Assembly: GCA_965208615.1 (NCBI GenBank)
Contig: CBDBPB010000001.1
Coordinates: 256,001 to 320,000 of the forward strand
From: Spirochaetota bacterium
GTDB taxonomy: Bacteria > Spirochaetota > UBA6919 > CBDBPB01
Length of the DNA: 64,000 nucleotides
Reading direction: 5' to 3'
The notes under the pieces were generated by a model. It saw only the letters and a program-made list of their open reading frames with translations. It was not told where the DNA came from and ran no database searches. The position numbers and the translations under genes are program-made. Numbering within the stretch: the first letter of the stretch is position 1; every line of letters starts with the position of its first letter. Positions 23,391 through 25,869 of the stretch are shown here, in pieces.

Positions 23391-23494
23391 TAATTAGTAA
23401 GACCCCAGCCCAATGCTTTTTATAAAATGTAAATAAGAAATTGCAGTATGGAATGAATACTAAATTCTTAAAAGGTATGTCTATTTTTATCGAA

Positions 23495-23728
23495 TTATTT
23501 TATTATATCCCTTACTACTAACATTAGTATACCAACTAGTATGCTCGTTATCATTGCAACTATTATTTTCATCATACCTTTTAGTTCTGATATATCTTGC
23601 TTTAACTCAAGCTTGACATCCTTAATCTCGTTTTTAAGCTTCTCTACTTTGACATCAGTAATCTCAGCTTCGTGTATCTGGCTAGTAACTTCTCTTTTTA
23701 TCTCTTGCTTTAACTCTTCACTTATCAT
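23495..23728 (-). CDS. Small coiled-coil protein with C-terminal TM anchor (Bdr/DUF1640-like architecture)
   Basis: Heptad K/E-rich region, then IIVAMITSILVGILMLVV; GAGG RBS. Confidence 0.7.
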   Translation of the reverse strand: MISEELKQEIKREVTSQIHEAEITDVKVEKLKNEIKDVKLELKQDISELKGMMKIIVAMITSILVGILMLVVRDIIK

Positions 23729-23787
23729 CTTTGCCTCTTCTGGAAATGAATACTAAATTCTTAAGAGGTATATCTATTTTTATCGAA

Positions 23788-24075
23788 TTATTTTATTATA
23801 TCCCTTACTACTAACATTAATATACCAATTAGTATGCTTGTTATCATTGCAATTATTATTTTCATCATACCTTTTAGTTCTGATACGTCTTGCTTAACAC
23901 TTGATATTTTATTGTCGAGCTTATTTTCTATTGCTTTTAATTCTACTCTTAGTCTTGATTCAACTCCAGTTATCTCATTTTTAAGCTTTTCTACTTTAAT
24001 GTCAGTGATCTCAGCTTCGTGGATTTGGTTAGTAACTTCTCTTTTTATCTCTTGCTTTAACTCTTCACTTATTAT
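23788..24075 (-). pseudogene. Tandem paralogue of 23495-23728, 18 aa longer, start codon ATG changed to ATA
   Basis: Open 96-codon frame IISEELKQEIKREVTNQIHEAEITDIK...GMMKIIIAMITSILIGILMLVVRDIIK; lies within the duplication 23452-23744 / 23745-24090. Confidence 0.75.
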
Positions 24076-24337
24076 CTTTGCCTCTTCTGAAAATGCTTGC
24101 GGCTTTATAGTGAGAGTGTAGATACTCTTCTATTGCAAGCTTGATTAGCATTTAATGAATTCTTCCTTTTTGAGTTTATTTATGAAGTATAACATAAGTT
24201 GCCTTGTGTCTTTATCGATTACGACTATCTTTTATTTGTCTATTTTGTTAATTACACCTCTAACTTAATTACTATATTGTAAATATAGTATAATCTGTTA
24301 ATTTAGTCAATTCTATGTTATTAATTGTTCTAGTAGT

Positions 24338-24819
24338 TAGGTACGGTTGAAACAAAGATATAAAAATATAATTTATTGGCCCCACAGCTAGTTTCAATTC
24401 CTTATAGGTACGGTTAAAACAACCAGCCTAAAAATCTATGACGCTTTTGAATCTTGTGTTTCAATTCCTTATAGGTACGGTTAAAACTACAAGCATATAG
24501 AGATAGATTAAGGTATAGATATTCGTTTCAATTCCTTATAGGTACGGTTAAAACCCAGTTTCTTTAATTGTAATGCCCATGTTGAAAATCTGTTTCAATT
24601 CCTTATAGGTACGGTTAAAACCATTATCGATTTTTGAGATCAGTGATTCTATTCTACGTTTCAATTCCTTATAGGTACGGTTAAAACTTGATTGCATTCG
24701 CATTCACATTCATCATCATCGTTAGTTTCAATTCCTTATAGGTACGGTTAAAACGAGTTAGTCACCGCCGTTATAACTAGCTAGCCTCTGTTTCAATTCC
24801 TTATAGGTACGGTTAAAAC
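24338..24819 (-). CRISPR. Orphan CRISPR array, type I-B-like repeat: 7 full repeats, 1 truncated trailer repeat, 7 spacers of 35-37 nt
   Basis: 30-nt repeat GTTTCAATTCCTTATAGGTACGGTTAAAAC at 24391, 24458, 24525, 24592, 24658, 24725 and 24790; partial at 24338-24353; minus-strand reading ends in the ATTGAAAC handle. Confidence 0.98.
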
Positions 24820-24960
24820 CCATTTACAACTTATAATATAACAATAAGTTATAATATACATTTCTTAAATTTATTCCCAAACCTCCGATAGTGTATTTTA
24901 AATAATTAATAACAAATAATAGCTAACACCATAGGTTTAAATAAAACTATTTTTTAAAAA
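24820..24960 (-). promoter_or_regulatory. CRISPR leader
   Basis: AT-rich, on the side opposite the degenerate trailer repeat; TTATAATATA direct repeat (24831, 24849) and AAACCT...AGGTTT inverted motif. Confidence 0.7.
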
Positions 24961-25051
24961 AAAAGCTTTCAATTCCTTAACGGTTAATACCACTCCTTTA
25001 GAAGTTTTCCCTAAAAGAAGAACTTTCAATGCTCACTTGTCCTGAATGTGC
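24957..25051 (-). ncRNA. Candidate crRNA-like RNA (pseudo-repeat / 32-nt spacer / pseudo-repeat)
   Basis: Minus strand: GCACATTCAGGACAAGTGAGC-ATTGAAAG | TTCTTCTTTTAGGGAAAACTTCTAAAGGAGTG | GTATTAACCGT-TAAGGAATTGAAAG | C then T-tract. Confidence 0.6.
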
Positions 25052-25057
25052 ATTTAT

Positions 25058-25086
25058 AATATAACATTAGGGGTGTAAAAAAGCAA
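25058..25086 (-). promoter_or_regulatory. Sigma70 promoter driving the candidate crRNA-like RNA
   Basis: Minus strand TTGCTT-17nt-TATATT with TG extended -10. Confidence 0.55.
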
Positions 25087-25290
25087 ACCCTTTATAAAAA
25101 ATAATGGAGCGGGGAGTACAAACAGATTTTCTTTTGATTTCTCTTATCTTATTATATTATAACTATTTAAGACCTATAAAACCATAAGCCTTAGCATTTT
25201 TCTTTCATCCAAGTTTTGTCAGACTTAATTTGCGAAATTATAAACGAGTATTTTAAATACTTTACTTTATATTTACTTTTTGCGTTTACC

Positions 25291-25869
25291 ATTTTTCGTA
25301 CAGGGCAAAGATGCAAGATGACATTTTATGATAATTTAATGGCTAAGAAGCTTCATATAAACGATGACATATAACGTAAAGTAGATATATTTTAGATGCC
25401 TTTGTAGAACAAGAAAGTTAAAATATTGATGAGAAAGTTATTTCCTTGTATCAAGCAGGTTATCCTTGCATACTCTTTAAGTGCTGTCTATTTGAGTTAG
25501 CAATTAACACAAAATATCACTTTTTATGCAAGTAGTCATCACTTCGAGAGCTATTAAGAATCCCTTACTGAGACTAAGAATTATACACCTTTATTAAGTG
25601 TTAAGGAATTTGCTGTTCCATAAAGACTTAAAAGGGATTATTAGAATATTATATATTGACTTTATATGTAACTTTCTATGGAAATTAAAAATAATAAAAC
25701 AGTTTATACCTATAAAAATTCATAAGCTTAGAACCTCTCTACAATAACCTAATAAAAACTTTGATAACAACATAAACTTCCCCTTTAAATAATAGCCCTT
25801 TAACACTCTCATCTCTCTTTAAAAGTTATATTGACTTTACTATTCCTTTTGCCTTGTACGACTAAAAAT
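25291..25869 (-). mobile_element. MITE-like element, copy B, with terminal inverted repeats
   Basis: Left ATTTTTCGTACAGGGCAAAG (25291-25310) and right TTTTGCCTTGTACGACTAAAAAT (25847-25869) are imperfect inverted repeats; interior is non-coding and homologous to 14942-15413. Confidence 0.72.

Follow-up and report, generated by a model that had tools for sequence, protein, structure and literature searches.

Does a short, degenerate repeat-spacer-repeat element upstream of the leader of a CRISPR array encode a guide RNA of its own, or is it the remains of an older array? This question is raised by a 64,000-nucleotide (nt) stretch of a Spirochaetota genome (assembly GCA_965208615.1, contig CBDBPB010000001.1, positions 256,001 to 320,000), here called the window, in which such an element, referred to below as the unit, precedes a type I-B array (array 1). 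Judged from its sequence, the unit appears to be a degenerate mini-CRISPR with one spacer, in effect a fourth CRISPR transcription unit of the genome, and it probably descends from the same repeat family as array 1 and a second array, array 2. By analogy with described regulators, we tentatively read it, at somewhat less than even confidence, as the source of a CRISPR RNA (crRNA)-like and probably non-cleaving guide.

Coordinates without a contig label are positions in the window, and the unit is read on the minus strand. It opens with the -35-like hexamer TTGCTT (25081-25086), which is followed after 17 nt by an extended -10 element, TGnTATATT (25058-25066), within TGTTATATTATAA. All elements of the promoter proposed in the original prediction are therefore in place, although TTGCTT agrees with TTGACA at only 3/6 positions; since our consensus promoter scan needs 4/6 hexamer matches, it does not list this site. 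Pseudo-repeat 1 (28 nt, 25023-25050) begins 7 nt past the -10 element and, when aligned to the array repeat, keeps only the closing 8-nt 5' handle ATTGAAAG (25030-25023), as had been predicted: identity is 7/8 within the handle versus 5/22 before it. On the premise that pseudo-repeat 1 derives from a repeat by decay, a concentration of 7 or more of its 12 identities in the eight handle positions has a probability of P = 0.0025 (hypergeometric). It is followed by a spacer-like stretch of 32 nt (24991-25022) and by pseudo-repeat 2 (25 nt, 24966-24990), which differs from the array repeat by the loss of 5 nt (ACCTA) and by two substitutions, T3A and a C-to-G change of the final base, so that 23/25 aligned bases are kept (10/11 and 13/14 around the deletion); both parts were correctly anticipated. 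The two pseudo-repeats agree with each other at 11/25 positions, and position -1 of both handles is G instead of C. The spacer-like stretch is shorter than all 15 spacers of the genome that are flanked by two repeats (35-37 nt); it is partially self-complementary and has a Shine-Dalgarno-like AAAGGAG at its end. A small peptide translated from this AAAGGAG was considered and rejected, as no start codon lies at a workable distance. The unit ends in a T9 run (24956-24964), which is preceded by C and then followed by A6. The predicted U-tract is therefore present, but no G+C-rich stem precedes it, no terminator-like site was called there, and it is not a canonical intrinsic terminator.

Array 1 (24324-24819, minus strand) consists of seven perfect 30-nt repeats and a decayed terminal repeat. 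The seven repeats, at 24391-24819, are free of mismatches, 0/100 shuffles gave any match, and an Rfam scan assigned 7/7 of them to CRISPR-DR2 and found no match in the unit. A gap of 146 nt separates the end of the unit from the array downstream. Between about 24912 and the first repeat, the leader of array 1 (24820-24955, minus strand) shows homology to that of array 2, with a score of 209 that 0/300 shuffles reach. Within it, the 28-nt core GGAGGTTTGGGAATAAATTTAAGAAATG (24853-24880) is found exactly also in the leader of the array of a second I-B system (G000:C2:34050-34090), which uses a different repeat, and with two changes in leader 2 (L001:17810-17850). The unit lies outside this leader homology, in agreement with the original prediction, and since it is without the conserved core it should not acquire spacers. 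Ordinary decay of a terminal repeat, which the prediction had excluded, was rejected here as well. The terminal repeat of array 1 (24353-24324) has kept 15 of its first 16 bases but only 3 of its last 14, and its handle is lost, whereas the unit shows the opposite direction of decay, with pseudo-repeat 1 keeping the handle only and pseudo-repeat 2 keeping both parts; moreover, the unit is located upstream of the leader and not at the leader-distal end of the array.

Genome-wide controls favour, at the level of sequence, a transcription unit. Over the 4.9 million strand positions of the genome there are 210 occurrences of the handle word ATTGAAA[CG], and only 0.0005 handles are expected by chance in the 11-nt interval that yields a 30-40-nt spacer. 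TGnTATA[AT]T is found 10-45 nt upstream in only 4/210 cases, namely at the first repeats of arrays 1 and 2, at the unit and at one site inside a coding open reading frame (ORF), and TGTTATATTAT is common to the three CRISPR sites, the starts of both arrays and the unit. A blastn-short search of the genome for repeat-core matches outside the arrays returned the 13-nt exact core of pseudo-repeat 2 as one of only two such matches; it adjoins the 10/11 match, and array 1, which has this repeat, is 146 nt away. A plain local alignment of the flank of the unit with the leader promoter (15/16 match) was not significant, as 21/300 shuffles reach it.

The designation of array 1 as cas-less in the original prediction is true only locally. 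A cognate I-B locus lies on the same contig, 61 kb from the unit, with the order cas6, array 2, cas8b(Csh1)-cas7(Csh2)-cas5-cas3, and array 2 has seven repeats with nearly the same repeat sequence as array 1. No cas1, cas2 or cas4 accompanies this Csh-type locus. A second and complete I-B system is present on contig C2 (cas6-cas8b1(Cst1)-cas7-cas5-cas3-cas4-cas1-cas2), together with an array of four repeats that differ from those of arrays 1 and 2. Since only this second system has cas1, cas2 and cas4, and since the leader core is common, one adaptation module may serve all three arrays. At a T4/A5 run (junction L002:5590-5610), the Csh-type cas3 (L002:4553-6996, corresponding to G000:C1:346052-348495) falls into two frames that overlap, the first containing the HD domain and helicase motif I and the second the remaining helicase. 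The split may be a real frameshift or an assembly error, and the depth of about 5x is a reason why it may be the latter.

According to the reading we favour, the unit would be transcribed on its own from its array-type extended -10 promoter. Cas6 of the Csh-type I-B system would trim the RNA in pseudo-repeat 2 and, with less certainty, in pseudo-repeat 1 as well, to a product expected to be about 60 nt long and to begin at AUUGAAAG; the handle would load it into the Csh-type Cascade, and the loaded RNA may then repress a target by partial complementarity and without cleavage, in the manner of CreA and CreR. The presence of the cognate cas6, cas8b, cas7 and cas5 genes in the genome supports this reading. 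Binding without cutting would be expected because of the G at position -1, and perhaps also because of a defective Cas3. For the I-B system of Haloferax, the 5' handle is described as essential and the 3' handle as dispensable, and at position -1 the change from C to G abolished defence while U and A were tolerated (PMC4326828). Both handles of the unit carry exactly this change, which fits a guide selected for binding without cleavage. A precedent for a crRNA-like regulator that acts in trans and genome-wide is the cr-like RNA of the Haloferax I-B system (cited in PMC10120712).

A second mini-array, outside the window, is found in the operon of the other I-B system between cas3 and cas4 (C2:32123-32260; L149:18124-18261), which indicates that this organism generates such elements and keeps them. 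A 40-nt G+C-rich hairpin interrupts the first repeat of this mini-array, after which come a 37-nt spacer and a 27/29 repeat. A direct duplication of 12-13 nt, GAGATTATATAG, borders the whole insert and leaves the stop of cas3 and the start region of cas4 intact. The "spacer" of this mini-array (C2:32195-32231) belongs to a palindrome family, AAAATGAyAAAnTTTrTCATTTT, with 23 sites in the genome at up to three mismatches, 18 of them outside ORFs, one site being C8:54995-55031 (L151:3995-4031); the best match of the spacer is 33/37. Two copies that agree with each other at 34/37 positions (C1:341616-341652, that is L001:17617-17653, and C1:348604-348640) bracket the cas6-array-cas8b...cas3 block of the first system. 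The palindrome presumably resembles an operator of the Fur family. 

Published mini-arrays show both likenesses to the unit and differences from it. CreR elements are described as degenerate mini-CRISPRs of types I-B, I-E and V-A that lie in cas intergenic regions, whose first repeat keeps the 8-nt 5' handle and whose second repeat keeps the 3'-handle part, and whose spacer has about 10-15 nt, including the seed, in common with a site in a cas promoter that is flanked by a protospacer-adjacent motif (PAM) (Liu et al., 10.1101/2023.03.10.532045). The unit likewise has two degenerate repeats around a spacer-sized stretch, with the 5' handle kept in pseudo-repeat 1 and the 3'-handle part in pseudo-repeat 2, in a type I-B host and with no evident toxin partner. 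CreA has two pseudo-repeats with 11-16/30 identity that are both cut by Cas6 (Cheng et al. 2021, PMC8501985), the first having diverged further than the second (Cheng et al. 2022, PMC9458426), and its partner in the CreTA module is a toxin gene next to it, with a promoter that CreA matches (PMC8501985, PMC9458426). Similar to CreA, the unit has a more diverged pseudo-repeat 1, a low identity between the pseudo-repeats and a promoter of its own. In contrast to CreA, no neighbouring toxin was identified: the small ORFs upstream of the unit are without translation signals, and the one beside it (27 amino acids, 25104-25187, plus strand) has no ribosome-binding site. Mini-arrays were reported for about 19% of bacterial I-B loci, near an array and targeting the cas6 promoter, and regulatory mini-arrays are described as lying inside or beside cas loci (Shmakov et al., PMC10120712). 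With these the unit shares two repeats, a spacer within 20-60 bp and the absence of a leader region for spacer uptake. In that survey, however, the upstream repeat is usually well kept and the downstream one degraded, whereas the reverse is true for the unit. The survey covered CRISPR-cas loci, and the word "orphan" occurs 0 times in the text (PMC10120712). The I-B crRNAs of Clostridium thermocellum and Methanococcus maripaludis carry the tag AUUGAAAC (Richter et al. 2012, PMC3479195). CRISPR locus 3 of C. thermocellum has the repeat family of the unit and this same tag; where its final tag base changes, close to a transcription start within the array, two fused arrays with leader remnants were proposed as the explanation (PMC3479195). 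There, however, the change lies inside a long active array with intact repeats, whereas in the unit the first repeat is almost lost and a full leader lies between it and the array. The CreA/CreR-type assignment of the original prediction holds for the anatomy, which fits the published genes, but not for the target, the toxin partner and the placement in a cas locus.

Solitary repeat units and RNA anti-CRISPRs, as well as phage crRNA-like RNAs, are borne by phages or mobile elements. Like them, the unit could give a repeat-derived RNA that competes with crRNAs for Cas proteins, but unlike them it is located in a core chromosomal, non-mobile setting between the gyrA and RNase Y genes, with a cupin gene as a further neighbour of array 1. 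No match to the unit was found among phage records either. In this chromosomal context, the anti-CRISPR idea raised in the original prediction has no support. A single sequence that is about 99% identical to the repeat of array 1 is present in Paenibacillus phage SV21 (MZ218124.1, 23687-23716) inside a hypothetical gene, and this copy is a solitary repeat unit in a phage.

Several results weigh against a regulatory guide. Two features of CreR and CreA are missing, the target and the location: the unit lies 61 kb from the cas genes beside a locally orphan array, unlike CreR. Pseudo-repeat 1 has no recognisable similarity in the part that a Cas6 would recognise, while the 5-nt loss in pseudo-repeat 2 and a spacer 3-5 nt shorter than true spacers resemble decay. 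In predicted folding, neither the repeat nor either pseudo-repeat nor the unit as a whole surpasses shuffled sequences (z -0.74 to +0.93). The 32-nt spacer has no second copy in the genome, and its best off-site match of 23/32 (3 sites) is also reached by 22/40 shuffled spacers. None of 18 spacer-length stretches (the 15 true spacers and, for each array, the 36 nt that follow its last perfect repeat) had a protospacer in the genome, and for the spacers of array 1 none was found among phage records; targets were therefore scored without a PAM filter. The genome-wide seed search suggested in the original prediction (spacer positions 1-5 and 7-11) gave 149 off-site matches, which is at chance level: only 20 sites are outside ORFs and none extends beyond position 12 in a promoter, and the longest match run from position 1, 14 nt, is inside an ORF. 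The T-rich seed is the complement of common Lys and Glu codons, and it is too common to single out a target. When the cas6-array 2-cas8b region, the region upstream of the second-system cas6, the surroundings of its array and 1 kb around the unit were scored, the best seed score of 12/14 was that of an array 2 spacer and not of a promoter, and all others were 11 or lower. No seed-anchored match, as expected for a CreR target, is present in the cas6, cas8b or neighbouring promoters, and none, as expected for the toxin promoter of a CreTA module, within 1 kb upstream of the unit.

The genome is the sole member of its family among species representatives, and the closest Cas8b in 400 genomes of the phylum has 34% identity. 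The unit is not covered in any of 60 other genomes, the best match being a 27-nt A/T-run (E = 2.7e-4), and a metagenome scan with a 19-nt leader core gave five stretches, all chance matches, of which 0/5 adjoin a CRISPR array. Arrays with the last 20 nt of the repeat were surveyed as well (117 stretches found, 80 of them retrieved). The 53 of these 80 stretches with 500 nt upstream of the first exact-core repeat were screened for the exact handle word, by which more decayed units are missed, and the word was present upstream in 10/53 arrays. At six loci (L028, L040, L041, L043, L059, L090) handle words occur at repeat-unit spacing, and these are taken, from their coordinates only, to be arrays continuing with variant repeats. 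The layout of the unit is absent from L092, L096, L103 and L104 and from the eight single-match loci inspected. In three sequencing runs, a single identical 649-nt contig covers the unit, with no variant, and no RNA run containing the locus was among them.

Three other explanations have to be weighed against a regulatory guide. It is highly improbable that repeat-like words have merely come together in A/T-rich intergenic DNA. A 13-nt exact repeat match has E = 0.52 genome-wide, and the other copy, at C1:244502, is unrelated; at C1:262580 two ATTGAAAG words form an unrelated pair with a distance of 57 nt, and the consensus scan found 11 promoter-like sites where 9.7 are expected from shuffles. 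In the unit, however, the 13-mer, the 10/11 match, a handle at spacer distance and an array-type -10 element coincide, and their joint expectation is far below 0.001. The unit might instead be an ordinary immune unit, an active single-spacer array with full complementarity to an unsampled phage or plasmid, expressed from its own promoter or by read-through into array 1. It has the promoter of the arrays, the T-run is followed by no terminator, so that transcription may run on into the leader, and the composition of the spacer is ordinary, with an end resembling a ribosome-binding site that is typical of a piece of a foreign mRNA leader. Yet an exact-pattern search of IMG/VR with the spacer, leaving each sixth base open, gave 0 stretches, and the spacer is absent from the seven phage records that match the region by blastn. 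It is also shorter than all others, pseudo-repeat 1 is unlikely to be a normal Cas6 substrate, and the G at -1 abolished interference in the one I-B system tested (PMC4326828). We consider an immune role unlikely.

That the unit is an inert relic is the strongest alternative, and only slightly less probable than a guide. An older array with one or a few spacers would then have existed upstream of the present leader, a rearrangement would have severed its first repeat directly ahead of the handle, with the old leader-proximal promoter remaining beside it, deletions in the spacer and the last repeat would have followed, and nothing would select for the unit today. Two or three insertions or deletions (the 5-nt deletion and a spacer 3-5 nt below 35-37 nt) agree with this, as do the failure to find a target and the lack of an equivalent unit among the 53 related arrays in the exact-handle-word screen. 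The G at the end of both handles would follow if they stem from a single older array whose repeat was a variant, and -1 variants and fused arrays are described in C. thermocellum (PMC3479195). In addition, type III array-adjacent mini-arrays that lack targets and conservation were judged to be degraded repeats by Shmakov et al. (PMC10120712). On the other hand, a relic presupposes a break no more than about 2 nt from the edge of the handle, for which there are about 3 chances in 66 per repeat-spacer unit, and in addition an intact extended -10 element at working distance. The changes are also too unequal for neutral decay of equal age, with 17/22 in pseudo-repeat 1 versus 2/25 in pseudo-repeat 2, and pseudo-repeat 2 retains its handle, unlike the terminal repeat of array 1. 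Within the guide reading, one special form would be a CRISPR-derived regulator that has departed from the cas locus and has become, by the G at -1 and a possibly frameshifted cas3, a dedicated non-cleaving repressor of a non-cas gene elsewhere in the genome; in this form, the operator-like "spacer" of the second mini-array would hint that both I-B systems are wired into the gene regulation of the host. This form we regard as improbable.

The surroundings of the unit contain further elements. A dispersed repeat of about 310-450 nt, found strictly between genes, has one of its copies at 25366-25671 (flanks reaching 25315 and 25770), which lies 280 nt upstream of the unit and occupies much of the upstream spacer region. 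The repeat has 61 other blastn matches in the genome, 40 of them of at least 290 nt, and 0/40 are within ORFs; most alignment columns are at least 90% conserved, and the depth of sequencing run X1 rises to about 350 there. It matches no Rfam family, and the genome contains no TnpB gene. Directly downstream of array 1, two tandem paralogous small ORFs are present on the minus strand (23452-24095), each coiled and charged in its N-terminal part and hydrophobic at the C-terminal end; their duplicated blocks comprise 151 nt at 95% and 124 nt at 91% identity. Within array 1 itself, spacer 2 (24688-24724) contains a GAATGC hexamer repeat, which is also found in spacer 4 of array 2 (G000:C1:342106-342141) in the opposite orientation, and the two spacers may derive from both strands of one repetitive target.

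Either way, the result remains within a known category, and its novel aspects are at best the unusual placement and the G at -1. If the unit is a relic, it is a clean example of decay at the start of an array and a caution against inferring function from anatomy alone. If it is active, it would extend crRNA-like regulators to a position upstream of the leader of an orphan array, which is outside surveys restricted to cas loci, and to a poorly sampled lineage with two type I-B systems, and it would provide a natural test of whether a G at -1 converts a guide from a cutter to a binder.

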